In this document: piece by piece, positions 45,089 to 63,555 of the stretch
Layout of the letters: each line of letters begins with the position of its first letter
Position numbering within the stretch: the stretch's first letter is position 1
Assembly (NCBI GenBank): GCA_964574595.1
Contig: CAZNOF010000006.1
Location: forward strand, 21,532-85,531
DNA: 64,000 bases
Reading direction: 5' to 3'
Source of the DNA: an uncultured Pseudomonadales bacterium
GTDB taxonomy: Bacteria > Patescibacteriota > Microgenomatia > UBA1400 > PJMF01
Position numbers and translations under genes: made by a program
Notes under the pieces: model-generated
Databases searched by the model: none
Told to the model about the DNA's origin: nothing
What the model saw: only the letters and a program-made list of their open reading frames with translations

Positions 45089-45979
45089 ATGCCTAGATTC
45101 GAATTACCTAGTATCACTGAGTCAATCAAACTTACTGCTTGGGATAAACCTGCCAAAAGCAGTAGAGTTGAAAAGATTGGCAACGCGATTGCACTCATTC
45201 ATGAAGGAATTCCACTTGAGGAGTCGTACATCAAAACCCTTTTTGGGGACAATCCTCCACCTGACTTAGATGGCACATTTGACTCCATCAATTTAGCAAC
45301 TGACGAGATTGCCAGAGATCCCAATGATGATCTTTCTATTAGAGTTGCCTTTGAAAATATGTACAAGCAAAAACAAGTCGAAATTGCTGCAGATATACAA
45401 AGAGTTAAGGAAGCAAATGAGGCTCTCCCATTAATGCAGCGCATTAGAAATCGCTTAACTGGGCGAAACGCCATTCGTACCTGGAATACTGGACCCAATT
45501 TTGACAAACGATCCAAGAAACAACAATTGGCTGATTTTATTGAATCCGAGAAAAGAGAGCGACGCCATCATTTGGCCTTAGGAACTCGATCTGATTACTT
45601 TCGACAAGGTTATCAAGAAGTTGAAATTGAGTTACGAGCCAAAATGATTCTGGAGGATGACCCAGCAATCTTCAAGCAATTTTTTGACACAATCAAGCTG
45701 ACACCCCAAAAACCTTTTCTAATCATCTATGGACATGGCGGTGACCGAGAGGGTCAACCACAAAAGTGGCAAATTGGCGAGTCCTTCACTCAAAACTATA
45801 CCGATTTAACTGAAGTTTTTAAAAAAATGCAGGCAGAAACTGGTAAATACTCGGCTATTCTGCTGGTTTCTTGCAATGGCAATAAATTAACACCACCAGA
45901 TGCAGGTGGCTCCCCCGTTTTTTACGCTGAGGGCCTCGCAGGATTGCGAGTACCAGGGAAAGTAGCGAAAGTTTTATAA
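45089..45979 (+). CDS. hypothetical protein
   Basis: 296-aa ORF. No motif. Confidence 0.4.
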   Translation: MPRFELPSITESIKLTAWDKPAKSSRVEKIGNAIALIHEGIPLEESYIKTLFGDNPPPDLDGTFDSINLATDEIARDPNDDLSIRVAFENMYKQKQVEIAADIQRVKEANEALPLMQRIRNRLTGRNAIRTWNTGPNFDKRSKKQQLADFIESEKRERRHHLALGTRSDYFRQGYQEVEIELRAKMILEDDPAIFKQFFDTIKLTPQKPFLIIYGHGGDREGQPQKWQIGESFTQNYTDLTEVFKKMQAETGKYSAILLVSCNGNKLTPPDAGGSPVFYAEGLAGLRVPGKVAKVL

Positions 45980-46873
45980 TTCTTCAATACGAACACTTGG
46001 GTTCATATCTGGAGTATCAATCAACTTGAGGTATTTCTCAGTGGTGGTAATTCGCTTGTGACCTACTAATTGAGAGACGTACACCAAAGGTGTACCGGCT
46101 TTCAATTGCTCGATAATAAAGGTGTGGCGTAAGTCGTTAACTTTACCATCTTTAATACCAGCTAAGCGGAAGTAGCGATCAATAGCGGTTCTGATGTTAC
46201 GAACTAAGAAAGGTCGGCAAGTTTTGGTTAAAAACAAGGTTTTTTCTCGAGCTCGTGGACGAATTCTCATGTACTCGGTTAAAGCGTTCTTAGCAGCTGT
46301 ATTCAAAGGAACTTTACGTGCTTCTCGAGAATTTTGAGCCTGAATGAAGATCACGTTATGATCCATATCAACCTCATTTACTTGGAGAGAAGAAAGTTCA
46401 CTAATACGCATTCCTGTCTGGAGTAAGATCTCGACGATACCGTAAATACGGACATCACTTCGACAAGCATCTCGCAAAGCGCGATACTCTAATTTTGACA
46501 ATACTCGAGGAGGAACTTGATCATATTTTGGATGAGTAATCACATCTGCTGGATTCTCAGTTAAAGCACCTTGAGCAATTAAGTAACGGAAAAAGGACTT
46601 AATTGAGTTGATTTTTCGAGAGATAGATTTACCGGTGTAGCGTTGCTTCTTGAGTAATTCTTTAAATTCCTCGATATCGTCAGAAACGATTTCATCAACT
46701 TTGGTTTTGTTTCGCTCAGCTAAAAACTGGAGCACTTGCTCCACATCTTTACTATAAGCGATAACCGTAGCGTGTGCTCGGCCTGCCGTGACTAAATATT
46801 GAGTGAACTGCTCGCGCATTTCAGATAATGAGTCTAAATTCATATTCTTGTCTTCTAGCTTGTTACAGGGCAA
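45974..46873 (-). CDS. xerD: tyrosine site-specific recombinase, XerC/XerD-like
   Basis: N-terminal SAM-like domain. Catalytic R...HxLRHT...HKRITTTEKY (R-H-R-Y tetrad context). 299 aa. Confidence 0.8.
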   Translation of the reverse strand: MPCNKLEDKNMNLDSLSEMREQFTQYLVTAGRAHATVIAYSKDVEQVLQFLAERNKTKVDEIVSDDIEEFKELLKKQRYTGKSISRKINSIKSFFRYLIAQGALTENPADVITHPKYDQVPPRVLSKLEYRALRDACRSDVRIYGIVEILLQTGMRISELSSLQVNEVDMDHNVIFIQAQNSREARKVPLNTAAKNALTEYMRIRPRAREKTLFLTKTCRPFLVRNIRTAIDRYFRLAGIKDGKVNDLRHTFIIEQLKAGTPLVYVSQLVGHKRITTTEKYLKLIDTPDMNPSVRIEEL

Positions 46874-48331: not shown

Positions 48332-48400
48332 CGCGGGATAGTGTACGGTGCACGTGAGGCTCATAATCTCGCAGGTCGGGTTCGACTCCCGATCCCGCAA
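48332..48400 (+). tRNA. tRNA with CAU anticodon (Met / initiator-like; 69 nt, CCA not encoded)
   Basis: Hand-folded. Acceptor CGCGGGA/UCCCGCA with a C1·A72 mismatch and A73 (E. coli tRNA-fMet has CGCGGGG/CCCCGCA+A). U8 A9. 3-bp D stem GUG/CAC with a GG-containing loop. Anticodon loop CUCAUAA. Perfect T arm UCGGG-UUCGACU-CCCGA. Followed by a weak hairpin + U7. The anticodon stem has two G·U pairs and Y11:R24, which is atypical for initiators. Confidence 0.5.
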
Positions 48401-48459
48401 CATAAGAAACAAGAAAATCGCCCCAGAGGCGGTTTTTTTGTACCTCTGCCTAAGATTTT

Positions 48460-51018
48460 TTGTTTTATACTATAATCCAGATTATGCCATTAGAAATTTT
48501 TATTCCTGGTGCTTCTGAGCATCAAGCACCTGAATCGAAACCCCTAGCGAGTGGTCTCGTCATCAATGCTCGAGGCGAAACGCTTGATTCAACACAAAAA
48601 ACCCAATTATTTATTACAAATGAAAAAGGTACAATTAAAGAAGTTGCCCCACTCGGACAAGAAAGACCCACTATGAACGGCGAGTACTCTCCTACCTCTC
48701 ATATTCCACAAGATGAACCAGAAGACATGAGAAGAACACTTGTAGAAACAGAAGCGGTGAAAACAGGACGAGCCTATAAATCAGATACGATCCTCGAAGC
48801 GGTAGCGAACAATGAAATACCCAAACTCTCGCACGGGCTGTACGATTTGGTTTTTGAGTTGGGATCAACAAATATTGACTGGCGAAAAGATGTAGAACCC
48901 ATCTTAACTGCAGCAGGCATCAATACTCTCAATCCAGATATGGGCGCGAACTGGGATCCTAAGCGTGACACGCTAGCTGAAGCATGGGGTTTGGGAAACT
49001 CTGCCGAGCTGGCGATGTATATTGAAAATGCTGCTGACATTAAGGATGGAAGTTTAGGTTCTTTAGTAGAAATCGGTATGTCCGTCTACTCAGCGGTTAT
49101 TAGTGGGCAGCATGTGGATATTCACTTTGACGAACACTTTGAGGAAACCTTAGAAGACCCCGGCGCCATCGCACAATTTGAAGCGTTAAAGACACAACTA
49201 GCAGCAATTCAAAAAAAATACGGTCACTTAGTCTCGGTTGAGTACAATAGTACTCGTCAAAACTATGCTGAGAAAATTCAATTGGCCATGGAGAGACAAC
49301 GGAATCCTGAAACCGCCAACAAGCCAATTACCAAAGAAAAATTGCAAGAATTTGCCGAAAAAAGAAGACAGAGATTGGCAAAAAAGAAACGCAAAGTGGT
49401 TTACGGCGGATCTTCTGCGCCTTTCGATAAATCACTGCAACTCTCCTTTGACACTGAGCAAGACTTAATTCAACAAATTTTTGGTGGCGAAGCAGCTATG
49501 GATGTACTTAACAGAGAGCCACTCAAATCTGCCTGGGATCGTGCCTACGAAGAAGGTATTAGTAAAGATGAGCAGATCAAACGTATGAACTTCTTATTCC
49601 AAATGGAAGCTGGTCCCAAAAGCCAAGCCGACATTTTACTCTGGATCATTCAAGCTAGAGCCGAGTCGATGGCTGCCATAACGGAAACACCGTTCCTGCT
49701 CCTAAATGCTTTAGAAGAAGGGCAACAAGTAGGCGTCCTCTCTGAAGACTTAGATGCTGACTTTTATGTGCAACACCTGTTTGGCAGAAGAGCACCAGAT
49801 CTTGAAAAAACGACTGGACCATTGCCAATTTACGACCAGCTCCGAGATAAACGAGAGACAATTACCTTTAAATCCATCAAAAATGAACCTGAACTCAAAA
49901 AGACTCGGCTCTTCTCACGTGCTGATAATGTCCGTCGCACTCGAGCCATTTCCTCACAGCAGTTACTAGGTATCAATGAAAAGGCCAGAAAAATTGCGGG
50001 TGACGAGGAAATTGAGTTGTTTATCTTTAGTCGAGATTTGACTGATTTTGCACAGAAGTGCCAAATTATTGCCGACAATGAAACCTTTGAGGGTCGTGAA
50101 GTGTTCTACAACAACTTAAGTAAGTTTAACGATAACATGGAGGCCATGGTGGCTGAGCATGCTGGAGATAAAGAACATGCCGTAGAGATTGTTTGGAATG
50201 CGATCAAAGCTGCTGTAGAGCTCAACCCATTTGCGCCATCATTAGAGAAGCACTTGAATGAAGTCAAGGCCACTTGTGCCACTTTGAAAGAATTGGTTGC
50301 GGCTCATCCGGACGCTGATGGCAATCCATACTTAACTCCAGAAGAAATGAAGTTAATGGTTGATTATGTGGCTCCTCTCCACGACATCTTAAAACTCCTC
50401 GGTGCTCCAAATGTCCAAGCTATCCCTGACCATGAAGTCTTTGCTGGATACATCGTAAACACTTACTTTGAGAAACTTGGATTTACTCCACAAGAAGTAG
50501 CATTCATTGCCGGCGTGATTGGCAATCATGAGAACATCTTTAAAGAGAAAGAGCGTGATAAGTACTCTTCATCAGAGAAATCAGTGGACCGAGGAGTTGC
50601 TCTCTTCTTTATCGCAGATGGCTTAACTGGCGTTGTGTCTGAGGAAAATGGGGTCATAAAACTCGATCCAGCTCAACTTGATGAACGTTTCGGCAAGCTC
50701 TATGTCAATCACATGGATCCAGAGACTCGAAAAGTTGCGCTGCCACGACCAGAATGGGGCTTCTCAACCGTCAAAGATTATCTGGCTACGTTTGATACGC
50801 TGGAAGCAAAATACGGCTTCAAATTTGATCCAGGTGCTCGAAAGATGTTGATTGATTCTGCTGTTAAAGCAATTGATACCACGCTCGGGAACAATGGCAA
50901 ACGAAAAGAAGAGGCATCCAACAAAAAACCACTCATGACTGATCCGGAACTGATTAATTTGATGAAAACACGATCGGCACTCAAGAAGATTGGCCGCGAG
51001 CTAGCACCAGCAGCCTAG
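48460..51018 (+). CDS. large multidomain hypothetical protein with C-terminal HD-domain-like motifs (alternative start ATG 48484)
   Basis: 852 aa. C-terminal third contains H...PLHDILKLLG...FFIADG, resembling the H / HD / D signature of HD phosphohydrolases. N-terminal regions unassigned. Confidence 0.4.
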   Translation: MFYTIIQIMPLEIFIPGASEHQAPESKPLASGLVINARGETLDSTQKTQLFITNEKGTIKEVAPLGQERPTMNGEYSPTSHIPQDEPEDMRRTLVETEAVKTGRAYKSDTILEAVANNEIPKLSHGLYDLVFELGSTNIDWRKDVEPILTAAGINTLNPDMGANWDPKRDTLAEAWGLGNSAELAMYIENAADIKDGSLGSLVEIGMSVYSAVISGQHVDIHFDEHFEETLEDPGAIAQFEALKTQLAAIQKKYGHLVSVEYNSTRQNYAEKIQLAMERQRNPETANKPITKEKLQEFAEKRRQRLAKKKRKVVYGGSSAPFDKSLQLSFDTEQDLIQQIFGGEAAMDVLNREPLKSAWDRAYEEGISKDEQIKRMNFLFQMEAGPKSQADILLWIIQARAESMAAITETPFLLLNALEEGQQVGVLSEDLDADFYVQHLFGRRAPDLEKTTGPLPIYDQLRDKRETITFKSIKNEPELKKTRLFSRADNVRRTRAISSQQLLGINEKARKIAGDEEIELFIFSRDLTDFAQKCQIIADNETFEGREVFYNNLSKFNDNMEAMVAEHAGDKEHAVEIVWNAIKAAVELNPFAPSLEKHLNEVKATCATLKELVAAHPDADGNPYLTPEEMKLMVDYVAPLHDILKLLGAPNVQAIPDHEVFAGYIVNTYFEKLGFTPQEVAFIAGVIGNHENIFKEKERDKYSSSEKSVDRGVALFFIADGLTGVVSEENGVIKLDPAQLDERFGKLYVNHMDPETRKVALPRPEWGFSTVKDYLATFDTLEAKYGFKFDPGARKMLIDSAVKAIDTTLGNNGKRKEEASNKKPLMTDPELINLMKTRSALKKIGRELAPAA

Positions 51019-51914
51019 TTTTTACGAAGCTTATAAACGAGTTTTTGATGAACAGGAATAGCTTCAACTGAGAAGCCAAGCTGCTTAAAGCAAGCCATCA
51101 GTTCGGCGTACTGGGCCAAACAATATTCATACCAATTAGTCAATGATTTGGCTTGTTCAAAAACACTTCTGTAGTGAACGACCAGCAGGGTTCCTTCTGG
51201 TTTCATTAATGAAGTGATGTGTCTAGCCAGAAACATCAACTCTGGCGATTTGCCAGACATCAGTTCTTGGGTAGCTGTTTTAAATAGCTCAGCATCTCGA
51301 TATAACTCTTGAATGTGCTGGCCCGACTTTTCCGCCCAAGTATTTAACAAATAATCATCAAGAAAATGATTGGTCGTTACAAGATCGTATTGTGGGTCAT
51401 TTGGCAGAACGAGGAGTTCAGAAACCAGTTTTTTGACAGCGAATTGAGGGTGAAAAAAGCGTAAAACTGTCTCTAATTTCTCCAATGAGGCTAGATCCGT
51501 ATCCAACAACGCAACTTCCCCTGTAAAGTTATGACGAGCCAATGCAATCTCAACTTTGGGAGCCCAGCCAGGCAGCAGATCAATCACGTTCATTTCCGAA
51601 GTCAATTTCACTGATTTCAGTAATTCATACCAGAGGTCTGAAATGTGATGGAAGCCTTCTAAATAACGCATGAACTCAGCGGTTCTTCTGCCTACATCGT
51701 CATGTTGCCTGCCAATGAATTCTGTCTCCGAGTACAGCCCCTTCTCGGCATACTCGACCATAAACTGTAAGTCAAAAGCCACGTTTTCTTGCTCCAAAGG
51801 CGTCAACGTAGAACTCAGTTTTTGCAGGCGGTCTAAGTAAGAAGATATTTGAGAAGAGGTGGATGAGGTGCTCATGAGGAATTGCCGTATAATATCATCT
51901 GGAACACTCGCCAT
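51015..51914 (-). CDS. hypothetical protein with weak Rossmann/SAM-methyltransferase-like motifs
   Basis: VIDLLPGWAP (motif I-like), VALLDTD (motif II-like), DLVTTNHFLDDY (motif IV-like). Start uncertain because the annotated start overlaps the divergent gene. Confidence 0.35.
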   Translation of the reverse strand: MASVPDDIIRQFLMSTSSTSSQISSYLDRLQKLSSTLTPLEQENVAFDLQFMVEYAEKGLYSETEFIGRQHDDVGRRTAEFMRYLEGFHHISDLWYELLKSVKLTSEMNVIDLLPGWAPKVEIALARHNFTGEVALLDTDLASLEKLETVLRFFHPQFAVKKLVSELLVLPNDPQYDLVTTNHFLDDYLLNTWAEKSGQHIQELYRDAELFKTATQELMSGKSPELMFLARHITSLMKPEGTLLVVHYRSVFEQAKSLTNWYEYCLAQYAELMACFKQLGFSVEAIPVHQKLVYKLRKN

Positions 51915-53040
51915 GCAACTTGATCAATCCACCACTTCTGCCGAAGCAATTCAGTTGAGAAAAAAACTGACCAGAATTGCGCGTGGCTTACGACATACAA
52001 CACTGCCTGAAGTTCTTGACTATTCCCTGCCTCAATCCGTCTCATCAGATACGATTCGTTTTAAAGACACCTTCATCTCTCGAAAGCGGATTGTGCTTTT
52101 AACCGGAAGTTGTAGTGTTGCCAGTTGTACGATGTGTCATTTGCCCAATGAAGCACTTTGGAAAGATCGGCCACAGCCCACACAAAAAAACTTGCTGGAT
52201 CAGTTTTCGGCCGCGTTCGCAGAAGACAAGATCAATAATTACGACATGATCACGATTTATAATAACGGCAATTTTTTTTCCGATCGCGAAGTTCCACCTG
52301 AGGTGCGCCTCAAGATTGCTGATCAAATTAATACCGCTGGCTGCAAGTACTTGCTCGTCGAGTCTCTTCCCCAGTTCATCACCTCAACAGCACTTCAAGA
52401 AATGAGTACGGCACTTGGAAATACCAAGCTCGTCCTATCGATTGGTCTCCAATCTGCCAATGACTATGTGCGTGAAGTGGCGGTGAACTCAACTTGTTCA
52501 AAACAACAATTTGAACGAGTGGTCAAGGAAGCCACCGAACTTGGTCACGAGATAATGACCTTCTTAATGCTCAAACCACCTTTTTTAACGGAACAAGAAG
52601 GCATTGATGACATGATTCAAAGCTTAGAGTACCTGACGTCTTTAGGACTCACAGAAACTGCCATTTGCCCAACTCAAGTTTCTGACTTTACGATTGCAGA
52701 TGTCCTTTTCACTGAGAAATCATTTACTCCACCGTGGTTATGGTCGGCGATAGAAGTTTTAAAGATTGCTCAACAAAAAAACCTGACTTTGCCACGCTTT
52801 GCCACATCCGTCTTGAGCTCTTCACATCTTGAGAATTTAAAGTTGGCGTATAATTGTGATCAATGTTCTGATCGATTCATCCATCTTTTAGAAGAATACA
52901 ATAACTCAAGAAATATTGATGCTCTCGTCAATTTTTCATGTTCATGCAAAGAAGAATATGATCGGCAACTTGCCCAAGCAGTCACCTTAGAAAGCTTAGA
53001 ATCGCGCATTACGGCGTTCACTCAAGCCCATTTTGTCTAA
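51859..53040 (+). CDS. radical-SAM-like protein with non-canonical Cx4Cx2C cluster and C-terminal extra Cys motifs (start uncertain; Met at 51916 possible)
   Basis: LLTGSCSVASCTMCHLP (C-x4-C-x2-C). TIM-barrel-like length. C-terminal CDQC...SCSC. Confidence 0.4.
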   Translation: MDEVLMRNCRIISSGTLAMQLDQSTTSAEAIQLRKKLTRIARGLRHTTLPEVLDYSLPQSVSSDTIRFKDTFISRKRIVLLTGSCSVASCTMCHLPNEALWKDRPQPTQKNLLDQFSAAFAEDKINNYDMITIYNNGNFFSDREVPPEVRLKIADQINTAGCKYLLVESLPQFITSTALQEMSTALGNTKLVLSIGLQSANDYVREVAVNSTCSKQQFERVVKEATELGHEIMTFLMLKPPFLTEQEGIDDMIQSLEYLTSLGLTETAICPTQVSDFTIADVLFTEKSFTPPWLWSAIEVLKIAQQKNLTLPRFATSVLSSSHLENLKLAYNCDQCSDRFIHLLEEYNNSRNIDALVNFSCSCKEEYDRQLAQAVTLESLESRITAFTQAHFV

Positions 53041-53043
53041 TAT

Positions 53044-54006
53044 ATGAATATCTCCTCTCCCACTTTTCAAGCCCTTACTAATCCCGTGCTTTTGACAGAA
53101 CTGCAAAACTACCGAAAGAGGCGCGGCTTTGAGGCAGAGAAAGTTGTACAACAAAAACAAGAACTACTGGCAAAATACTGCACGGATTGGCAGATTGACA
53201 CCTTAATTGTGCCAGTTAGCGGCGGAGTTGACTCTGCGGTGGTGGCAGCCTTAACGGCGGTTGTAACACAGAAAAATCAAACGCTCAAAAAAGTGATCCT
53301 GCTTTTTATTCCTCAGTTCAATGAGGGCAGTTCGAACCAAGCCGATGCTCAAAAAAAAGTCGAACTTCTGGCAGACAAACTTCAAGTTGAGCTCATTACC
53401 TTTGATATTTCAAACTTGCACCAAACTGTGATCGAAGAACTCAATAAAAAATCTCTCAGCAGTGGCTGGCTAAAAGGCCAAGTGACGACCTATTTGAGAA
53501 CGCCCGTTTGGTATAGTTTAGCGGCTCAACTAGCCGAGGCAGGCCATCGGGCAATCGTCTCCGGCACTATTAATTTTGATGAAGGCAGCTATCTGGGCTA
53601 CTTCTCTAAAAGCTCTGACGCCATGACTGACATTCAGCTGATTTCCGATTTACATAAGTCGGAAGTCAAAAAAATTGCTGAGTACTTTCGGATTCCTGAA
53701 GAGATTAGAAACGCGATTCCCAACGGGGACATGTATGACAATAGAAATGACGAAGCTGTTTTTGGAACGAGTTATGATTTTGTGGAACTGTATAGTTGGT
53801 TTCTTCAGCTACCTGAAGCGGAGCAAGCACGGAAATTGAAAGGTTGGCCGGCGGCAGCTCAAAAAGAGTTCGAGCGGATGAGAGCAAATCTAGAACGACT
53901 TCATGAATATAATCGGCACAAATATACTGTCGCCCCACAAGGACTGCACTTCACGGTATTTGAGGCAACTATTCCCGGTGGCTGGACATTAGTAAAATAT
54001 GTTTGA
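53044..54006 (+). CDS. nadE: NadE-like PP-loop ATP pyrophosphatase (NH3-dependent NAD+ synthetase family)
   Basis: PP-loop VPVSGGVDSAVVAAL. C-terminal ISDLHKSEVKKIAEYFRIPEEIRNAIPNGDMYDNRNDEAVFGTSYDFVELY matches the NadE L.K.EV..LA..LG.P..I..K.PSA.L..Q.DE...G..Y..LD pattern. Confidence 0.6.
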   Translation: MNISSPTFQALTNPVLLTELQNYRKRRGFEAEKVVQQKQELLAKYCTDWQIDTLIVPVSGGVDSAVVAALTAVVTQKNQTLKKVILLFIPQFNEGSSNQADAQKKVELLADKLQVELITFDISNLHQTVIEELNKKSLSSGWLKGQVTTYLRTPVWYSLAAQLAEAGHRAIVSGTINFDEGSYLGYFSKSSDAMTDIQLISDLHKSEVKKIAEYFRIPEEIRNAIPNGDMYDNRNDEAVFGTSYDFVELYSWFLQLPEAEQARKLKGWPAAAQKEFERMRANLERLHEYNRHKYTVAPQGLHFTVFEATIPGGWTLVKYV

Positions 54007-55732
54007 CCATCGCCTCAATCCGTACTTCCAAAAATGGCTGGGTCTCAATCAGGATGAGCTTGATGCAGCTTTCAGTGCCTTGCCCGATATTGATCAGCTA
54101 AATCCAGAAAACAGATTTTGCTGGAAAGTCTTACGAGACACGCATTACGCCACGGTTTGTGAACAGCTTGACACGCAAGAACTCATTAAAGCAGGTTTTT
54201 TTGATGACACGATTAATTTTCAAGATACGGTCTTCTCACATCAAAAAGTTGCCCAAGTGGGAATTCCAACCCGGAAACTTGATACGTTATTAGGGAAAAG
54301 TTCAAATTCTGCAAAACCAAAAGTCGTTTTGTTAAGTACCGGCGCGTTTGCCCATGCGCACTTTGGTCATATTCATATGATGGAGCAAGCAAAAAAAGCA
54401 GTTGAACAATCTGGGAAAATTGTAGTCGGCGGATTCCTCTCTCCCTCTCACCAAGATTATATTTCTTATAAATTGGGCTCGATCGCACCTCTTTTTTCGA
54501 TTGAGGAAAGATTGGCTGCCTTACGATTATTGACCGATGAATCAGACTGGTTAGACGTGGCACTGACGGAATCCCTTTACCGTAAAACATCCGTCAACTT
54601 CACTGATATCATTGAAAGTTTGCAAATCTATCTTGGAGAACTCTATCCGACGGAATCTATTGAAGTCATCTATGTCTTTGGATCTGATAATGCGAAGTTC
54701 TGTTATGCATTCGCTCATCTTGGTAGCGCCATCTGCGTCCAAAGAGATACTTTTCATGAAGAGTGGCAAACGTATCAGCAGTTATTTAAAACCAACCACC
54801 GAATTTTATTTACCAATGCCATCATCCCGTACTCCACCTATGCATCCTCAAAAAATAGAACCGTCAAATCAGAAACTCCTGCCACGCCAAAGTTAGTGAA
54901 AAAGCATAAAACACTTTTACTTCGTGATGACCGAGACTACCTATTAGAAAAATGGCCGATTGGGAATACAACTCAGTTGAAAACTACCTTGGATTTATTT
55001 CACCAACGCCTAACTCAGCTCTTAGAAGAAGCATTGTCAAAAGACGAAACCTTCAGTTGGCAGGTGATCAAAAATCCCATGAATGAGCAGAAAAAAAAGT
55101 TAGCTGAGCTGATGAGAAATCAGCTTGTGATCAATTTAGATGAATGTACCCAAGGAAGTCACGCTTTGCGTGTGTCACGCTTGTTCTCTTTGTTTGACTC
55201 ACAAACAAAACCACTCAAACTCGTGGCAACTCCTGGCTCTGAATCAATCGAAAAACAGTTAGCGCAAATTCCGGCTGGTAAGTACCAGCTGACGGACGAT
55301 GACATTTCAACTGGTTTTACGACAACACAGGCTCGCAAACTTTTGGAAGCAACTGAGCATCATATTTCTGAAGTGACCAGTCTTTCAACAAACGATGCTT
55401 CGGTGCATGAAGTCTTAGATCTACGGGACTTTCTTGTGGGTGCTCCTGCCAGCGGGTTAGTGATTGAGCTGTCTGACAACAAGTACCGAGTTCCGTACTT
55501 GTGGCCGTATGTCAATATTTCCAGGCGTGGCTCACTACCATTTTTGGCGAGTTTTGAGTTCTCTAAACAGATATGGCAAGCAAATGCGGCGTTTTTTAAA
55601 GCCGTTGCACCTACAATGACACTAAGCGAAATAGATCCATACAGGGCTGAAATCTTTTACTTCTTTGGATTCACCGCACAGACAACAATCGTTGAGCTAT
55701 GTCTGAAACATGTTCAATTACTGAATCTTTAA
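53999..55732 (+). CDS. fusion protein: HxGH nucleotidyltransferase (NadD/NMNAT-like) domain + C-terminal type I phosphoribosyltransferase domain
   Basis: VVLLSTGAFAHAHFGHIHMM resembles the G.F.P.H.GH signature of NMN/NaMN adenylyltransferases (Ala for Pro). C-terminal KYQLTDDDISTGFTTTQA is a PRPP-binding loop of type I PRTases. 577 aa. 8-nt overlap with nadE. Confidence 0.5.
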   Translation: MFDHRLNPYFQKWLGLNQDELDAAFSALPDIDQLNPENRFCWKVLRDTHYATVCEQLDTQELIKAGFFDDTINFQDTVFSHQKVAQVGIPTRKLDTLLGKSSNSAKPKVVLLSTGAFAHAHFGHIHMMEQAKKAVEQSGKIVVGGFLSPSHQDYISYKLGSIAPLFSIEERLAALRLLTDESDWLDVALTESLYRKTSVNFTDIIESLQIYLGELYPTESIEVIYVFGSDNAKFCYAFAHLGSAICVQRDTFHEEWQTYQQLFKTNHRILFTNAIIPYSTYASSKNRTVKSETPATPKLVKKHKTLLLRDDRDYLLEKWPIGNTTQLKTTLDLFHQRLTQLLEEALSKDETFSWQVIKNPMNEQKKKLAELMRNQLVINLDECTQGSHALRVSRLFSLFDSQTKPLKLVATPGSESIEKQLAQIPAGKYQLTDDDISTGFTTTQARKLLEATEHHISEVTSLSTNDASVHEVLDLRDFLVGAPASGLVIELSDNKYRVPYLWPYVNISRRGSLPFLASFEFSKQIWQANAAFFKAVAPTMTLSEIDPYRAEIFYFFGFTAQTTIVELCLKHVQLLNL

Positions 55733-55743
55733 AGCTTCTGCAA

Positions 55744-56841
55744 TTACCCTGAGTGAGTGTACGTTTGTGGAGACTGATTCCACTTATAACTAGAACTGGA
55801 CGGAACACTTGGTGGCTGAGAATTGTATTTAGCCGCTTGAGCTTGAGCTTGTCTGGCTGCTTCTTCAGCTTCTTCTTTAATTCGTTGGCGATTTTTCTCT
55901 TCTCGATACTCTTTAAGCTGGGCGTCCATATCAATTGGCTTTTTCAAAACTTTCACTTTTGTAAACAACTCAATAACTTGACCATCCCTGTGCTCAACTT
56001 CAAACTCAAAGCGTGAGAAATCTCGTCCTGTCTCTGAGTCAATATCTCCTATATTTGCAAAAGAACCTGGGACAACTTGAAACTTTGACTTAGCCCCTGG
56101 GGCTTCTTCAGTCAGTAAGATTGGACGAATGAGGTCGTACTTATCTGGGTCTTTGCACGAGATAATCAGCTCTTTCTCACCATTGGCATTATTGATATAA
56201 AGGATGTCAACTTCATTGCTTGGATCATTAATATCACTCGGATTAAATCGCAAAGTCACGAGCTGGCCGTTACCACCCTTAACTAGACCCTCGATGCGGA
56301 CGATTGGTAACTTCTCGACTTGCTTATCGATGGCTTTCTTGACTTGTTCTCGTTTTGCCATCTCTCTGAATGAATCCATGGCGGAAACAAGCTTGGTATT
56401 TAAACCAATACTCGCTAGAGAAGACTTATCAATCTTGTTATCAATTTCATCAACCCGCAGCTCTAATAAGTCAGCCAAGTTTCCTAAGAATTCATCGCTT
56501 TCATCACCGTAGAACCATTCAAACTTGGTTCCTTGAAGGGCTGCCTTCCCCCCACCATCTCTTACCAGCTTAATAAAGCTTTCGATATTCGCTTTTTCTG
56601 CAGCACTTATTGTTTCCGTGTCAAAAATAAGTTCACCCGTACCAGATTTAAATGCTTTATCTCGTGTCACACCCTGATCATGTTCATCTGGATCAGAGAG
56701 TGGTTTTTCAGAAAAGACGAACTTCTGGTCACCAATAAATTTAGATAGAAAGCTACCCTCTGTAGATTCTTTCTCAGGTGGCAAATCCATTTCAGTTTTA
56801 AATTCTTTTGGATCAAAGCGTCTATTCGGATTTTCTGTCAT
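55744..56841 (-). CDS. hypothetical acidic protein, last gene of the ATP-grasp/AAA/VWA operon
   Basis: 365-aa ORF. C-terminal Q/A-rich tail. No motif. Confidence 0.4.
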   Translation of the reverse strand: MTENPNRRFDPKEFKTEMDLPPEKESTEGSFLSKFIGDQKFVFSEKPLSDPDEHDQGVTRDKAFKSGTGELIFDTETISAAEKANIESFIKLVRDGGGKAALQGTKFEWFYGDESDEFLGNLADLLELRVDEIDNKIDKSSLASIGLNTKLVSAMDSFREMAKREQVKKAIDKQVEKLPIVRIEGLVKGGNGQLVTLRFNPSDINDPSNEVDILYINNANGEKELIISCKDPDKYDLIRPILLTEEAPGAKSKFQVVPGSFANIGDIDSETGRDFSRFEFEVEHRDGQVIELFTKVKVLKKPIDMDAQLKEYREEKNRQRIKEEAEEAARQAQAQAAKYNSQPPSVPSSSSYKWNQSPQTYTHSG

Positions 56842-56869
56842 ACTTTCCTATCTCTTGTAATTTCGTAAT

Positions 56870-58498
56870 TTACCATTCTGGAACAACCTCATTGCCACTT
56901 ACTTTGGCGCTTGCACCTGGTCCCATGTAGTTGTGACCAGCTTGGTTCTTAGGTTTCAGCATATTCCACAGTGGCATACTATCGATGTAGTCGTAGACGA
57001 TTTTGTAATCACTTGGTGTCTTCTCATCACCAAAAACACCAGATAAATAGACTTCTCTCAAGGCTTCTCTTACTACATTTCCCCAGTTAATTTCAGCTGG
57101 TTCTTCGAGCCCACCGTTTGGAGTTTCTTCTGCCGTACGGTTAATACCAGCAATCATTGCATCAACTAAAGCAGAGACATCCCGCTGATCAAAGACATAC
57201 GAGCCACCGTTCTTCTTCGTTCGACCAATTAAACCTTTACTGACCATTTCTGAAAGAGAAACATGGAGCGTAGCGATACTTTTGCAGACAACATTTACTT
57301 TGTCAGCTGGCAAAGATTCAAAGTATGACTTTTGTGGAGTTTCCACGCCTCTTCTTCCCTTAATCAGTTTGCCATTCACACGTACATCTGGATCATCACC
57401 TACCATCTTAAATTTGAGGATATTTTCTACATACTCAGGAGTTACATTTGGTAAAACAACTGTTTCATTGCGACTTTGCCAGGCGTCTGAAAGATACGAA
57501 CGGCCGGAAACAGCTGGTGGGTTCTGAGCCATGACAATAAATGCGTCAGGACTTCTCACCACGGGTGGTCTAAACCCAGATACTGAGAAACTTACTGTAT
57601 TGACTTCTAGCAAAGGCAAAAGCACTTCCAACACACTTGTGTTATCTACAGTATTTGGCTCATCTAAAGCCAAGATTCCACCCCATTCGATAATCTCTAC
57701 AGCGGGAGAATCTTTCCATGTGTATTCAGATTTAATTAAGAGCTCCAAATTAATCTGACTCATCAGGGCTTTAGCAGCATCCAATACTTCTTCATCGTCA
57801 AGAGCTTTACTCTCTAAAAGCTCAATCAAGTTGTCGTAGACAATGATTAAGTCGCGGTCTGCACTTGTAAGTTTATCTTCTTTTCCGTCTGCAATCAGTT
57901 TTTTTCTCCATTCAACTTGTCTGGAGACACCAGCTGATTTCAGCAATCTCATCACTGTTGGCAGGATAATTTCTTTTTGATCAGAAACGCGACTACCAAT
58001 AATATTTGATTCTTTGGTGCCAGCTGAGAAACTTAAGCGATAGTATGGTTGACCAATGATCGCGGAAAACACCCAGGTCGCAAATGTTTTAGAAACAGCT
58101 GGAGGACCTTCCAAAGTCATCGGCTGGCGACGATTGTAACGGACACCAATTTCTCCTAGCACCCACAGTGTTGTTTCATCAAGCATGACCTGTTCTTGGA
58201 TATGCTCCCACTGCGTGATGCGCTCCTGCATTTTTTCATTGGCTGGCATCTCTGGGATACGGACGATCACTGGAGTATCAAACTCAGGGCAATACATACG
58301 GACAATTTGGTGTCGTTCATCATCATTCTTGGCATAAAATCTCAATGCACTACTATCATCACCTAAAACAGAGTGATACTCACTCCAGTTGATTTTTTGA
58401 TACTGCTCACGAGCTGCTTCACGGCTACGTTCACGTTGGAGTTCAATTGCTGTTTTGCCAGCTTCTGGATTCTTGCTAGTTGGATTCTGCTCGTGCAT
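56870..58498 (-). CDS. AAA+ ATPase of the MoxR / AAA_5 (dynein-related) class with degenerate Walker A
   Basis: GPPAVSKT (P-loop with Ser in place of the second Gly). Walker B ILALDEP. Sensor-1-like MAQNP. 542 aa with long N-terminal extension. Confidence 0.55.
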   Translation of the reverse strand: MHEQNPTSKNPEAGKTAIELQRERSREAAREQYQKINWSEYHSVLGDDSSALRFYAKNDDERHQIVRMYCPEFDTPVIVRIPEMPANEKMQERITQWEHIQEQVMLDETTLWVLGEIGVRYNRRQPMTLEGPPAVSKTFATWVFSAIIGQPYYRLSFSAGTKESNIIGSRVSDQKEIILPTVMRLLKSAGVSRQVEWRKKLIADGKEDKLTSADRDLIIVYDNLIELLESKALDDEEVLDAAKALMSQINLELLIKSEYTWKDSPAVEIIEWGGILALDEPNTVDNTSVLEVLLPLLEVNTVSFSVSGFRPPVVRSPDAFIVMAQNPPAVSGRSYLSDAWQSRNETVVLPNVTPEYVENILKFKMVGDDPDVRVNGKLIKGRRGVETPQKSYFESLPADKVNVVCKSIATLHVSLSEMVSKGLIGRTKKNGGSYVFDQRDVSALVDAMIAGINRTAEETPNGGLEEPAEINWGNVVREALREVYLSGVFGDEKTPSDYKIVYDYIDSMPLWNMLKPKNQAGHNYMGPGASAKVSGNEVVPEW

Positions 58499-58506
58499 TT
58501 AGTCCT

Positions 58507-58929
58507 TTAATTCATTCTGCATGTGTAATCAAACACATGTTGTAAATTTGGTGATAAATCAGACACATTTGTGTTATTTAAGAGTACAAAAAGGCGACCT
58601 TTGTTATCACTATGACCTGCCTGGGAAGCTGTTTGTTGCCAACCCATTAAATCGGTGTACATACTTAATAACTGATCTTGATCCTTACAAGTAATCAGGA
58701 CGACCACGCCTACCTTGAAAAAGGTGTTGACGATGTCGAACAGTTTGGCGGCCCCAATTTTCTCAACTTGATCTCCAGAAAGAGTTTGACACATCTGGCC
58801 TTTACTCTTAATGATGTTCACAATTTCCATGCCATTTGTGTCTTTGTCAGTCACAAAAAGGGAGACAAAATGAGAACCTTCTGGGGTTGGGGTAAGACGT
58901 TTAGTGATGAACTCTTCAACGGTATTCAT
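58507..58929 (-). CDS. hypothetical small protein (140 aa)
   Basis: Intact ORF between the AAA_5 and VWA genes. Alpha/beta-like composition. No motif. Confidence 0.4.
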   Translation of the reverse strand: MNTVEEFITKRLTPTPEGSHFVSLFVTDKDTNGMEIVNIIKSKGQMCQTLSGDQVEKIGAAKLFDIVNTFFKVGVVVLITCKDQDQLLSMYTDLMGWQQTASQAGHSDNKGRLFVLLNNTNVSDLSPNLQHVFDYTCRMN

Positions 58930-58962
58930 AGGTAGCTTTCACGGTATTGTACTGCACCTTCT

Positions 58963-61764
58963 TTATTTTTTAAACTCATTTGGGTTACTAATAATGTATT
59001 GAAAAATGATTGGTAATACAATCGTTAACTCTGCTGTATCTGAGAATGAGTTACTTATACCTTCAAATTTCACCTTGCCAACTTTAGCCGTTAGTCCCTC
59101 ACGAGTATAGTAATTGTTCAGCTCTTGAGTGATCTCAGCGCGCAATCCGTCTGGTAACAGAGGAAAGACTTCATTGACAAATTCTGTATTCTGACCGATA
59201 CCAAACCCTAACAGGGCCAAATCTATATTATTATTTGTGGCATCAGACTGCACTTGTTTAATGACCTCTTTGAGCAAATCACTTGGTGCGAGCGGGATAT
59301 TTGGAATGCTATCAGTTGGTTGACCATCTGTTAAGACAATTAAGAAATCTCGCTTCTTACCGCTTCTGGCTGTCTCTTCATTTCTTGTTGCTAATTCTTT
59401 GAACGTGGATAACATGGCACTGGAGGTTGGTGTGCCATTTCTTGGTACCATTAAGAGACCACCAATATTCCTCTTCTGCTCTTCACTCAACTCCTCATCT
59501 GTGTCTTCCGTTTCTGCATAGGATTTAAACACTTTCATAGTCGTGCCATCACTAAACTCCGTAAATCCCTCCACCGCGAACTCAATTCCCAACGCGGTAA
59601 ATACTGTAGATAAAATGGTTACCATCTTGAACGCTTCGCGAATCTTATCGTCCATAGAACCAGATAAGTCGACTAAAATAGTAAATCGATAATTTTTCTT
59701 ATTTGGCTTCTCCTCATATGCTAAAACATCTCGGCCACCCTCACCTCGTTTGCGATCGATATCTCGGTCAATATCTAACTCACCTTCATCTTCAGAATAG
59801 CGAGTTCTCGGATGATTCTTGGGTCTGAAAATTGGCGAAAACTCATCAACTAGTGTTTCAATTGCTAACTTAATCTCTGGCAATCTGCTTACTGTATCAA
59901 ATACCTCCATGGTATCTTCAACTTCCGACATAAATTGATCATTCGCTCTCTGAATTTGATCCAAAATATCTTGGGGAACTGGAGGTAATTCTCTTGGCGA
60001 GGGGGATGGCTTTTTTTGCTCAGGAATTGGCTTTCTCGTGGCGGATTGTTGATTCTCTTCTCCTGAATCACTGGCCTCTTCACTTTCTTCACCTTCTTTT
60101 CCATTTTCACTCTCACTTGATTCAGATTCACCACTCTCTTGTCCTGGCTGGCCGGCCTCACCGGACTCACCTTCACCCGCTTCGCCTTCACCGGACTCAC
60201 CCTCCCCACTTTCACCCTCTGAACTCTCACCGCTGTCATCACCTGATTCAGATTTCTCACCTTTTTGCTGCTGTTTCTGCTTCTCTGAAACCTTACTCGG
60301 TCGGCTGACGCCTTCTTTATCAGATTTGCCTTCTAATTTTTCATTGACTTCATCTTCAACTTCGCCAAGTTCTTGCTGAGCCTTATCCTTCATTCCTTGC
60401 TTGGTATCTTCTTTGACTTTATCGAACTGTTCTTTAATTTTTTCTTTGGACTCTTCGCTGACTTTATCCCATGGAATTTCAGGTTTCCCGCCTTGAGAAC
60501 TACTTTCTCCACTTTGGGATTGTTCGCCAGATTGCCCACTTGCTGAACCTGATTGAGAACTTGGTTGAGAAGAGCTTGAAGAGCTTTGTTGACCTGATTC
60601 TTGTCCTGCCTGACTGCCTTGACCTGAATCAGAACCCTCCTGAGCTTCCTGGCTTTCACCAGACCCGCCAGATTCTTCACCTGATTCTCCTGAGCCGGCA
60701 CCAGATTGTTGACCCTGTTGACCAGGTTGACCCTGCTGGCCAGGTTGGCTCTGTTGCTGTCCTTGCTGCTGTTGTTCTTCTTCTTTACGTTGTTCGTCGA
60801 TGAGTTCTGCCAACTCTTTTTGGACTTCTGGAGGCAAAGAGTCAAAATCGATGATGACGAATTGACCACCATCTTTCCCTTCAAATTGCCCACCCTCGAT
60901 CAGTTGATCAATAAACTCTTTCAAGGATTGATCATCAACAGATTTTTCAACTAATTCTTTGTAAATATTCCAAATGTCACGGTAAACAATCGCGCGAGCC
61001 TTTGCTTGCTCTTGAATTTGCTCTTCCTTGGCATACATGTCTGGAACGGCATCCCAAAAAGCTTCCATCAGCGGGGCAATTTTTTGAAATGCTGCCTCTA
61101 CATCTGGATCGATACTTTTAATGAGTGCGGAAAACTCATCCATTTTAGTTTGGTCAATTTCGGTGTATGGATCAACTCCATAGATCGGGGTTTTTTGGTC
61201 TACGTTGAGGGTTCCAGCCACTTGCCTGCCGTAAAAATACTGACGCATCACGCCACCTAAGATCATGTGTTTTGGAATGTAGCCAAGTTTTTTCTCAACT
61301 TGTTGATTGATGGTGATATCTAAGCCGCCACCTTTTGCGACATCGACATCCAGATGAGATTTAATCAGCTCCTTGCCTCGGCGGTGAACTCGGTCAGCGG
61401 CATTTTCAATTCCACAGTCTTCGGCAAAGTTAAAACCTATGGCAAATCCTAATTGTGACCACTCGTCTTTGGTAAAGTGTTTCACACGACTCATCCAAAC
61501 ATGAAGTGCTTCATGCAAAGCAACACCCACACAATACTCACGAGATTTCCCGAGTAAGTCATTCTCATCCATCACAATATAATTTTCTTGAAAGTTCCAG
61601 TACCAACCTTGACCTTTTTTCCAAATAACAGGAATGTCTTTGCCCGGATTCGCAAATTTCACGATTTCAGCACACTGACGTCGCGTTTCTTCTCGATAAA
61701 CGACTTCGGATCTGCCAGTGTCTGCCTCGTGTGAAATCATAGATAAATCAGCATTATACTTCAA
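58963..61764 (-). CDS. metallopeptidase-like (HExxH) N-terminal domain + long acidic/Q/G/S-rich disordered linker + C-terminal von Willebrand factor A domain (DUF2201-like architecture)
   Basis: VGVALHEALHVWMS (HExxH). About 250 aa of QQG / SGE / EGES repeats. C-terminal MIDAS motif ILVDLSGSMDD (DxSxS). 933 aa. Confidence 0.6.
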   Translation of the reverse strand: MKYNADLSMISHEADTGRSEVVYREETRRQCAEIVKFANPGKDIPVIWKKGQGWYWNFQENYIVMDENDLLGKSREYCVGVALHEALHVWMSRVKHFTKDEWSQLGFAIGFNFAEDCGIENAADRVHRRGKELIKSHLDVDVAKGGGLDITINQQVEKKLGYIPKHMILGGVMRQYFYGRQVAGTLNVDQKTPIYGVDPYTEIDQTKMDEFSALIKSIDPDVEAAFQKIAPLMEAFWDAVPDMYAKEEQIQEQAKARAIVYRDIWNIYKELVEKSVDDQSLKEFIDQLIEGGQFEGKDGGQFVIIDFDSLPPEVQKELAELIDEQRKEEEQQQQGQQQSQPGQQGQPGQQGQQSGAGSGESGEESGGSGESQEAQEGSDSGQGSQAGQESGQQSSSSSSQPSSQSGSASGQSGEQSQSGESSSQGGKPEIPWDKVSEESKEKIKEQFDKVKEDTKQGMKDKAQQELGEVEDEVNEKLEGKSDKEGVSRPSKVSEKQKQQQKGEKSESGDDSGESSEGESGEGESGEGEAGEGESGEAGQPGQESGESESSESENGKEGEESEEASDSGEENQQSATRKPIPEQKKPSPSPRELPPVPQDILDQIQRANDQFMSEVEDTMEVFDTVSRLPEIKLAIETLVDEFSPIFRPKNHPRTRYSEDEGELDIDRDIDRKRGEGGRDVLAYEEKPNKKNYRFTILVDLSGSMDDKIREAFKMVTILSTVFTALGIEFAVEGFTEFSDGTTMKVFKSYAETEDTDEELSEEQKRNIGGLLMVPRNGTPTSSAMLSTFKELATRNEETARSGKKRDFLIVLTDGQPTDSIPNIPLAPSDLLKEVIKQVQSDATNNNIDLALLGFGIGQNTEFVNEVFPLLPDGLRAEITQELNNYYTREGLTAKVGKVKFEGISNSFSDTAELTIVLPIIFQYIISNPNEFKK

Positions 61765-62557
61765 ATAATCGCTCGAAAGAGTTGGTAATTATGTCTAAAA
61801 CTGGCTTGTGGCTTCTGCCTTTTTGGGCAAGATATTCATAATGTACCTCTGCCAAATGGCGAACTTCTTCGATCACGTATTCGTGGCACGTTTCATCCTT
61901 CGCAAACATCGTAAATGACACGTACTTCAATCCTGGAAATGTCAGCAGTACTTTTTTAGCAATTTTTTTGAGTTGACGAGAGGCTTGTCCAGTCACATCC
62001 ATATACGCAAAAGAATTTGTTTGAAAATCAACTTTTTTTCCTGCCTCGACAAAACTGATCACATTCTCGTGGGTCCGAACTTTTTCGAGCACTTGAATGA
62101 AGCCTGTGTCACTCAAGAAGACTTGATACTCGTTGCCCTGAAGTTGCTTTTCTATCAGCACGTTTTGTTCGACTTTGCTCAAGGTCTCAAATGCTTCAAT
62201 TAACTGTTTTAAGGAATAAATAGTCGTTAGCTCATCACCTTTGGCATTCGCATTTTCTAATTTCAGTGAAATTGGGAAGAGTATTTTTTGAGCGAAAGCC
62301 ACAGCTCTAGATAAATCTTGGGATGAGAAAACTGCCGACTGGGGTATACACAGTTTAGCGTCCTGCAAGACTTTTTGCGTAAAGTATCGATTGCCCAAGA
62401 TCAGTCCTATGTTATAGGGTACCATCGGCAAATACTCGCCAATCACAAAGCGCTGTTTGCCATTTTTCGTGAAGACTTGAATATCAGTGCCAACAACTTC
62501 TTCTACTTGGAAATGATTTTTGAGTGCGTAATCAAGAATTTGTTGATGCATTTTCAT
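61754..62557 (-). CDS. ATP-grasp-fold protein, paralogue of the upstream ligase, possibly degenerate
   Basis: Aligns by eye with the 333-aa ATP-grasp protein (FPISLKLENANAKG vs YPVVVKPVNDGQG; LIEKQLQGNEYQVFL vs LLEKHIFGEEYRVLI). Lacks the terminal E-x-N...PG Mg-binding motif. Confidence 0.45.
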   Translation of the reverse strand: MKMHQQILDYALKNHFQVEEVVGTDIQVFTKNGKQRFVIGEYLPMVPYNIGLILGNRYFTQKVLQDAKLCIPQSAVFSSQDLSRAVAFAQKILFPISLKLENANAKGDELTTIYSLKQLIEAFETLSKVEQNVLIEKQLQGNEYQVFLSDTGFIQVLEKVRTHENVISFVEAGKKVDFQTNSFAYMDVTGQASRQLKKIAKKVLLTFPGLKYVSFTMFAKDETCHEYVIEEVRHLAEVHYEYLAQKGRSHKPVLDIITNSFERLFEV

Positions 62558-63555
62558 ACGTTAAAACTCACTTCCACCAGCGGTTTGGCAACGTCATGAG
62601 ACTGACCTTTTCCTGGGACAGTATGCAGTGATAAACCTGGGTAGGCATTGAGCTCGCAGATTATCCATTCCTGTTTTGTAAGTGGTTTACTAATATCCTG
62701 ACAGATCAAGTCTAAACCCACATATGCCAATCCGCCCACCGCATCTAAAACGCGACTTGCCAACTTTTTGACACTTGGATGAGCTCGATTTGTGATATCT
62801 TCACAACCGCCACCTTTTGAGACATTGGTATTTGGCCGAAGCTGCACAACAGCACCTTGTGCTGGAACAGATTGAAGATTTTGCTGATTTTTCGCTAAGA
62901 AAGTACTCACCACTTCATCCATTTTAATTTCACACAAGCAAGTGATTCTGGGATTCATTCGTCGAAAGTTTTCTGCTTCAATCAACTGTTTAATTGAGTG
63001 CTTGCCATCACCAAGGACTCGTGCTGGAGTTCGGTGGACTGCCGCAAAATAGCCAGTCTTGGTAATCAAGACTCGATACTCTTCACCAAAGATATGCTTT
63101 TCAAGTAAGAAGACTGAGGAACTATGATTTTCCTTCGCGTAACGATCAATGCAGGTACTCAGTTCCGTTGGTGATTCAATAAGTGAATACACGAAGTTTC
63201 CTTGGCCATCATTAACTGGCTTAACCACTACGGGGTAAGCTACTTCATCGGCAAACTTGAGTGCCTCCCTTTTTTGATAAATACTAAACACTTTGCCTGG
63301 TGCCACATTGATCTTGTTCATTTCCAGGACTTTTTTGGTATAGAACTTATCGCTAGCAATCCAGCCGGAGGTGAAAGAAGAACAGGAAGAACTGATATCA
63401 AACAGCAGTTCTTTATGACCATTAAGAGACGCGACAGTAATTGGCGTGTCATCGATAAACCGTAGCCGAGCTCCATTTTTTTCGGCAGCAACTAAAAAAA
63501 GATTGGTATTGTAGTGAATGTCTTTTCTTTTCATCAAGTTTAAATCTGGGCGCAA
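62554..63555 (-). CDS. ATP-grasp ligase (RimK / cyanophycin-synthetase-like peptide ligase family)
   Basis: YPVVVKPVNDGQGNFV (ATP-binding lysine loop), EKHIFGEEYRVLI, C-terminal WIICELNAYPGL (E-x-N Mg site). 333 aa. Confidence 0.6.
   Translation of the reverse strand: MRPDLNLMKRKDIHYNTNLFLVAAEKNGARLRFIDDTPITVASLNGHKELLFDISSSCSSFTSGWIASDKFYTKKVLEMNKINVAPGKVFSIYQKREALKFADEVAYPVVVKPVNDGQGNFVYSLIESPTELSTCIDRYAKENHSSSVFLLEKHIFGEEYRVLITKTGYFAAVHRTPARVLGDGKHSIKQLIEAENFRRMNPRITCLCEIKMDEVVSTFLAKNQQNLQSVPAQGAVVQLRPNTNVSKGGGCEDITNRAHPSVKKLASRVLDAVGGLAYVGLDLICQDISKPLTKQEWIICELNAYPGLSLHTVPGKGQSHDVAKPLVEVSFNV

Follow-up and report, generated by a model that had tools for sequence, protein, structure and literature searches.

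Within a window of 64,000 nucleotides (nt) from contig CAZNOF010000006.1, which is the whole stretch of DNA analysed here, we find a gene for a protein of 844 amino acids (aa) in which sequence and model comparisons point to two tandem nucleoside 2-deoxyribosyltransferase (NDT)-like domains followed by a very divergent domain of the HD superfamily. The architecture NDT-NDT-HD was not recovered in the libraries or literature searched, and we regard it as a new divergent family within known superfamilies. The family has about 140 cluster representatives and is covered by no model in Pfam or NCBIfam. We hold with moderate confidence that the protein is an enzyme that dismantles or remodels nucleotides, combining the cleavage of a phosphoester with the cleavage or exchange of a base-sugar bond, for the purposes of salvage or clean-up. 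The chain is divided in the following manner, with residue numbers, window coordinates and strand.

aa 1-117 (48484..48834, +): variable N-terminal region with no predicted structure, unaligned among homologues; predicted local distance difference test (pLDDT) 23-35 in a poor full-length model
aa 118-262 (48835..49269, +): NDT-like domain 1 (PF15891), with G127-S128, R134, E166 and S190-L-G-S-L-V-E196-I-G
aa 298-428 (49375..49767, +): NDT-like domain 2, a diverged duplicate of domain 1, with G309-S-S, E375 and S395...E401
aa 429-544 (49768..50115, +): helical linker between the modules, predicted at low confidence, varying in length and sequence among homologues
aa 545-805 (50116..50898, +): divergent HD-superfamily domain, placed by conservation, by the match of the consensus to Pfam HD and by an AlphaFold2 (AF2) model
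aa 806-844 (50899..51015, +): variable loop and then a weakly conserved C-terminal helix, placed by AF2 at model residues 291-311

The full-length AF2 model, calculated from two sequences, is poor (pLDDT 45). Searched alone, the window protein has almost no matches in Pfam, NCBIfam, PHROGs or the PDB, and the first-pass annotation of this DNA had taken it to be an orphan. A word-index search with the protein returned a single homologue (P0002, 43% identity), and just one to three relatives even with a 53-sequence profile. Since the word-index search missed the family, an exhaustive search with a hidden Markov model (HMM) was needed. Using a two-sequence profile this gave 140 cluster representatives with E ≤ 1e-3, 119 with E ≤ 1e-10 and 59 with E ≤ 1e-30, and the protein is therefore no orphan. 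Full-length homologues have 27-53% identity to it. On the full-length profile, clear matches to both halves occur in 17 proteins, to the C-terminal module alone in 77 and to the N-terminal module alone in 39, with some of the single-module proteins in this tally being fragments. No reading frame for the N-terminal module was found next to the C-terminal-only relatives, as a split-gene arrangement would have. Wherever a source was seen for a representative, it was a metagenome or a metagenome-assembled genome (MAG). The scan for related loci was made with a nine-sequence alignment; the MAG-labelled loci comprise one from Myxococcota and two from Pseudomonadales, the rest are metagenome contigs, and the family is sparse and patchy. 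There were no relatives among 50,697 phage and 72,556 plasmid records searched by tblastn, nor in a scan of a viral contig collection.

The two modules also occur with other partners. The HD module is elsewhere fused to SLOG domains of LSDAT type (best E 5e-26) and to NUDIX, and the NDT module is elsewhere fused to NUDIX (E 1e-14 to 1e-17). These partners, NUDIX and SLOG, like the NDT-like domains themselves, all bind or process nucleotides or ADP-ribose.

The scores for the C-terminal module are weak but consistent, and they indicate a genuine if very divergent HD-superfamily domain. Its ligand pattern reads H590...H633-D634 (then K637)...H650...H682-E683...D712, with each of the six ligand residues retained in 98% or more of some 95 relatives. 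Among the aligned domains H590 is retained in 90/91, H633 and D634 each in 91/92, H650 in 93/94, H682 in 94/95 and D712 in 96/96. The invariant residues of the 53-sequence alignment are H590, H633, D634, K637, H650, E683, D712, H743 and W758. According to published work a dinuclear HD site is diagnosed in sequence by H...HD...H...H...D (PMC8177086), and the two extra histidines that it places between HD and the last D are found as H650 and H682. Both of these had been overlooked by the first-pass annotation, which had correctly picked out the motifs APLHDILKLLG (H633-D634) and FFIADGLTG (D712). It had placed the first histidine in KEHAVE (H565), and this residue is not conserved; the conserved first histidine is H590, within EKHLNEV. 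The metal ligands are thus near-invariant among homologues once the first of them has been corrected.

Against Pfam HD (PF01966) the consensus of the family reaches 23.8 bits (cut-off 22, E 5.8e-5, model positions 3-112 of 116), and 6 of the 56 relatives in the C-module set match that model individually at E ≤ 0.01. The AF2 model of aa 530-844, calculated with the 53-sequence alignment, has a pLDDT of 95.8 and a predicted TM-score (pTM) of 0.93, and is helical except for one short β-hairpin. When it was compared with the PDB using Foldseek, the top-ranked matches were nearly all of HD fold: PDE9A, PDE4, PDE1B, GppA (probability 1.00), PPX (0.98) and the tRNA-processing enzyme 3wfp. PADLOC reports a weak Cas3a2 HD match at aa 587-689 (E 1.2e-3). 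The earlier assignment of a C-terminal HD-hydrolase-like domain is accordingly supported by the ligand conservation, the Pfam score of the consensus and the structural matches, for what is a very divergent member; none of the Pfam or NCBIfam models covers the module.

With the dinuclear HD phosphohydrolases of YqeK type and the HD phosphodiesterases (PgpH and class I PDE) the domain shares the H...HD...H...H...D pattern, an HD-x-x-K sequence and a helical fold, and structurally it comes nearest to PPX/GppA, in their HD-like domain, and to the catalytic domains of phosphodiesterases. It differs from them in lacking both an arginine before the first histidine and an HH pair, and sequence similarity lies at the edge of detection. 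The adjacent HH pair of the HD-GYP and PgpH type of phosphodiesterase is replaced by H682 followed by E683 (94/96). The family has its own conserved C-terminal extension, R-x6-R/N-H ... K ... R-P-E-W, which in the window protein supplies R735, N742, H743, K750 and R755-P-E-W758 after the HD core. The basic character of this extension suggests a phosphate-rich ligand. Position 742 (50704-50706) belongs to the R-H pair that is conserved behind the HD core; it is asparagine in the window protein and arginine in 94/97 relatives.

The N-terminal half (aa ~118-428) is well supported, by profile comparison, as two tandem NDT-like domains. The first-pass annotation could assign no motif in the N-terminal 550 aa, the region in which PF15891 and hhalign now place both of them. 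The window protein itself matches PF15891 (Nuc_deoxyri_tr2) at aa 129-201 with E 1.2e-4 and 22.8 bits, below the cut-off of 30, while the domain-1 family consensus scores 38.8 bits, above it, and 29 of 54 relatives match the model, the best at 1e-40. The domain-2 consensus matches weakly (E 0.023). Alignment of domain 1 with domain 2 by hhalign gives a probability of 96.6% and E 5e-10, and pairs E166 with E375 and S190...E196 with S395...E401. The glutamates are strongly retained in relatives, E166 in 50/51, E196 in 49/51, E375 in 38/41 and E401 in 38/43.

In the manner of the NDT/DNPH1 (Rcl) superfamily (PF15891, PF05014), the domains appear to be of Rossmann type, with Gly-Ser after the first strand and an internal glutamate (E166). 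Known members of this fold are dimers, and cleave or transfer the base-sugar bond by means of a glutamate nucleophile, which in the NDT of L. leichmannii is Glu98 (PMC3710099). A late S-x-G-x-x-x-E-x-G-like motif, S190...E196, has the same S-x5-E spacing as S87...E93 of rat DNPH1. E196 and E401 sit in this matching late motif, their match to Glu98 and Glu93 being by motif spacing alone. Two differences stand out. The window protein contains two diverged copies in one chain where NDT and DNPH1 form a homodimer, and the copies are fused to an HD domain.

On these grounds we would picture a cytoplasmic enzyme with two catalytic modules. In the dimers formed by known members of the fold the active sites are shared between subunits, and the tandem duplication makes it plausible that the two NDT-like copies pack together as an intramolecular pseudo-dimer, a single chain then providing both partners. 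The substrate of the NDT module would be a nucleotide or nucleoside, whose base-sugar bond it would cleave or exchange. The six-ligand HD pattern would bind two metal ions, and the HD domain would hydrolyse a phosphoester, with R735, H743, K750 and R755 holding the phosphates. Both activities might act serially on one substrate, for example by removal of phosphate and then release of the base, with the outcome of breaking down or recycling nucleotides or nucleotide-derived by-products. The gene would at times be recruited beside a biosynthetic cluster that uses S-adenosylmethionine (SAM) and makes intermediates resembling nicotinamide adenine dinucleotide (NAD). If the enzyme does strip both phosphate and base from a nucleotide, a single protein could carry out the whole breakdown or clean-up of a nucleotide, and because the predicted catalytic residues can be named a direct test is possible.

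The genes surrounding five full-length relatives are as follows.

L001: P0002; neighbours a transposase and carotenoid genes
L002: relative of 27% identity; neighbours a P-type ATPase, a pilus ATPase and YkuD
L015: P0003; gene follows an HhH-GPD glycosylase
Own contig: P0004; neighbour DUF4012
L018, 8290-14822: P0005; neighbours a PRK-family kinase, a Ham1 ITPase, a YbaK-like editing protein, an S-adenosylhomocysteine hydrolase and a PfkB sugar/nucleoside kinase

The neighbourhood of P0005 fits nucleoside salvage or clean-up. The same role is suggested by the position of P0003 after a glycosylase, by the lack of relatives in the phage, plasmid and viral collections, and by a match to defence models limited to the weak Cas3-type HD.

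A number of observations weigh against our interpretation. At the amino end, replacement of the domain-1 glutamate (the E196 position) by lysine or serine in P0006, P0007 and P0142 means that one NDT-like copy may be degenerate in part of the family; P0006 and P0142 keep the domain-2 glutamate, and P0007 has glutamine at the E401 position too. No match was obtained when domain 1 was compared by hhalign with rat DNPH1, using a sequence verified as identical to PDB 2khz, nor when the domain-1 profile was searched against PDB sequences. Since both comparisons were empty, the DNPH1-like mapping of S190 and E196 is a motif resemblance and not proof. At the other end, the window protein alone does not match Pfam HD, the HD-module profile finds no match in PDB sequences, and every Foldseek match of the C-module model is weak (best E 0.06, TM 0.3-0.37). 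HD phosphatases have an arginine about three residues before the first histidine (PMC8177086), and here it is absent, position 587 being leucine in 87/90 relatives, so that the chemistry may be that of a phosphodiesterase or even of an oxygenase. Finally, the gene contexts of the family are heterogeneous.

Downstream of the window gene lies a group of nine genes.

51015-51914 (-): 299-aa protein, weakly methyltransferase-like (Pfam Methyltransf_23, E 1.5e-3)
51859-53040 (+): RaSEA-like radical SAM protein (TIGR01210, 2e-59)
53044-54006 (+): NadE-like protein
53999-55732 (+): fusion of domains like nicotinamide mononucleotide adenylyltransferase (NMNAT) and phosphoribosyltransferase (PRT)
55744-56841 (-): protein of 365 aa that matches no family
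56870-58498 (-): MoxR-type AAA_5 protein
58963-61764 (-): von Willebrand factor A (vWA) protein, 933 aa
61754-62557 (-): ATP-grasp ligase
62554-63555 (-): ATP-grasp ligase resembling the ATP-grasp domain of cyanophycin synthetase (1.5e-67)

This is a conserved, uncharacterised cluster (51015-63555), and a literature search for its combination of genes found nothing. Homologues of eight of the nine genes are present in L013/L014, of five in L010/L011 and of two in L012. At 30-35% identity there are at least 35 homologues of the NMNAT-like/PRT-like fusion, and in all four loci examined the fusion gene stands directly behind a NadE-like gene. The 299-aa gene, which is the first of the cluster and has homologues in the L010 and L013 clusters also, is convergent with the window gene, the 3' ends of the two overlapping by 4 nt, and it recurs beside the HD module. 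In L003 the gene immediately downstream of an HD-only relative is its homologue (31% identity, E 2e-28), again in convergent orientation as in the window. In L017 (1394-9243) the HD-only P0035 heads a same-strand row in which a B12-binding radical SAM protein comes next, then CoaE, a second radical SAM protein and a methyltransferase. The row also carries homologues of two proteins of the window cluster, the 365-aa protein (E 2e-11) and the RimK-like ligase (37% identity, E 1e-72).

These arrangements raise the alternative that the window protein is an accessory enzyme of the adjacent cluster, which would trim, base-exchange or recycle a nucleotide-derived product or intermediate. We consider this doubtful, and it is the alternative that survives best. 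The window gene abuts a cluster that is itself conserved, overlapping its first gene, and the same association recurs around the HD-only relatives of L003 and L017, in the latter with radical SAM genes and the 365-aa and RimK-like homologues. A comparable partnership is that of the HD phosphohydrolase OxsA with the B12-dependent radical SAM enzyme OxsB in oxetanocin A biosynthesis, a documented pair (PMC8177086). Their HD gene lies next to that for a B12-binding radical SAM protein as in L017, and the radical SAM gene of the window is two genes from the HD gene. However, OxsA has a four-ligand H...HD...D site (PMC8177086) and its observed homology to the window family is at the level of the superfamily, and the radical SAM protein of the window is RaSEA-like and not B12-dependent as OxsB is. 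The L010/L011, L012 and L013/L014 clusters have no HD or NDT gene within the sequence examined, up to 8 kb on each side of the NMNAT-PRT gene, none of the five full-length relatives listed above has a cluster gene nearby, and the window gene, being convergent with the cluster, is not co-transcribed with it. The first-pass annotation had grouped the gene into a module with the radical SAM, NadE-like and PRT-like trio downstream. That trio does belong to a conserved cluster, and cluster genes do stand beside HD-module relatives in L003 and L017, but the clusters of L010 to L014 do without HD or NDT genes. The link between gene and cluster is thus real, recurrent but facultative.

Going further, the gene and the cluster could together constitute an undescribed pathway that builds and recycles an NAD-like dinucleotide or a nucleotide-peptide metabolite, which we think improbable. 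In such a pathway the PRT-like domain would join a base to ribose phosphate, the NMNAT-like domain would adenylylate the product and the NadE-like enzyme would amidate it. The radical SAM protein and the methyltransferase-like protein (in other genomes a 2-oxoglutarate (2OG) oxygenase) would tailor the product, and the ATP-grasp ligases would add amino acids. The protein with HD and tandem NDT domains would then cleave the product or swap its base; enzymes of CD38 type cleave NAD(P) or swap its base. Whatever the role of the window gene, the survey of its neighbours has exposed a cluster with NAD-synthesis-like enzymes, ATP-grasp ligases, a radical SAM protein and a MoxR-vWA pair, and this may be a more interesting object than the window gene itself.

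Some further features of the cluster were observed. As listed, with a GTG start, the radical SAM reading frame shares 56 nt (51859-51914) with the 5' end of the divergent 299-aa gene, and the true start of the frame is probably further downstream because homologues align only from residue 33 on. L010 and L012 have a PhyH-like 2OG-Fe(II) oxygenase that is either joined to NadE in a fusion or inserted behind it, and in L012, from Variovorax, a Mom-family gene lies 3 kb upstream. The vWA gene contains short tandem repeats with a spacing of 9-15 nt at 60153-60221, and aa 315-582 of its protein weakly match a Gly-rich collagen-like adhesin model.

A role as a conflict or defence effector, which when triggered would deplete nucleotides or NAD+, is close to the idea of a nucleotide-signalling or depletion module put forward in the first-pass annotation. 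We judge it quite unlikely. A toxin role for NDT domains in abortive-infection fusions has been put forward (PMC3710099), and the NDT-like effector of retron Ec86 acts on a nucleotide cofactor, depleting NAD+ (PMC13276650). SLOG domains, which act in Thoeris as sensors of nucleotide signals, are among the fusion partners of HD-module relatives, and the family has a sparse, patchy occurrence. A tRNA gene adjoins the window gene, 1.5 kb further upstream is an integrase gene, and a MoxR-vWA pair is in the vicinity. Set against this, the PADLOC match is confined to the weak Cas3-type HD, and the neighbours of the window gene give none except a weak NsnC match for the 299-aa gene (E 7e-3). Relatives are absent from the phage and plasmid records and the viral contig collection, the protein has no sensor or regulatory domain, the neighbours of relatives are housekeeping genes, and at the locus itself the 3' end of the tRNA is unrepeated in the window and there is no break in composition. 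Unlike the retron, the window gene has no reverse transcriptase or non-coding RNA partner nearby as judged by PADLOC and Rfam, and it differs from Ec86 in domain architecture and in genomic setting. We find no evidence in support of signalling or of defence.

It is very improbable that the HD module is non-hydrolytic, whether as an oxygenase with dinuclear iron (MIOX/PhnZ/TmpB type) or as a module that binds a ligand without catalysis, for although all known HD oxygenases share the H...HD...H...H...D ligand set (PMC8177086) and a conserved L587 stands in place of the phosphatase arginine, the conserved R735, K750 and R755 suggest a phosphate-bearing ligand, the NDT-like, NUDIX and SLOG fusion partners all handle nucleotides, and the nearest structural matches are phosphodiesterases and PPX/GppA.

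The start of the window gene and the sequence before it contain the following features.

48332-48401: tRNA-Met(CAT), called by Rfam; the reading frame below is the first gene after it
48419-48431: GC hairpin and then a run of seven T, between the tRNA and the reading frame; a second scan reports the same hairpin on the - strand
48460-51018 (+): open reading frame with a TTG start, 852 aa, from the list of reading frames
48471..48476 (+): TATAAT, a -10-like box read from the sequence, ending 7 nt before the ATG; a possible promoter
48484..51018 (+): coding sequence from the ATG, 844 aa and stop; the identical product is on record

The list of reading frames, the tRNA call and the hairpin with its T run agree with the first-pass description of an 852-aa frame that is the first gene after a tRNA and terminator. 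Rfam finds nothing else in the window besides the tRNA. The tRNA-Met gene is preceded at a distance of 1.5 kb by a gene for a tyrosine recombinase of XerC/D-like type (45974-46873), in which a SAM-like domain stands N-terminal to Phage_integrase, and a glycosyltransferase gene of the GT2 type lies between the two. A tRNA-bounded island was considered and rejected; the 3' end of the tRNA is not repeated in the window, where no att-like copy of it was found downstream, there are no long direct repeats, and the GC content is flat.

The ATG at 48484, already favoured in the first-pass annotation, is the better start, because the product on record is exactly 844 aa from that position and the alignment with P0002 begins at Met-1 of the homologue. 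TATAAT had been placed at 48467-72 and is in fact four bases further right; bases 48466-71 read TATACT. No -35 box matching it was found in a consensus scan. The near-leaderless mRNA that had been suggested is plausible from the sequence, because the -10 box is so near to the ATG, no Shine-Dalgarno sequence is visible between them, and the layout recurs in relatives. In four of seven family genes examined (those of the window, L016, L017 and L018) TATAAT or TATTAT stands 6-8 nt ahead of the ATG and a Shine-Dalgarno sequence is missing, and leaderless mRNA is probably a trait of these lineages.

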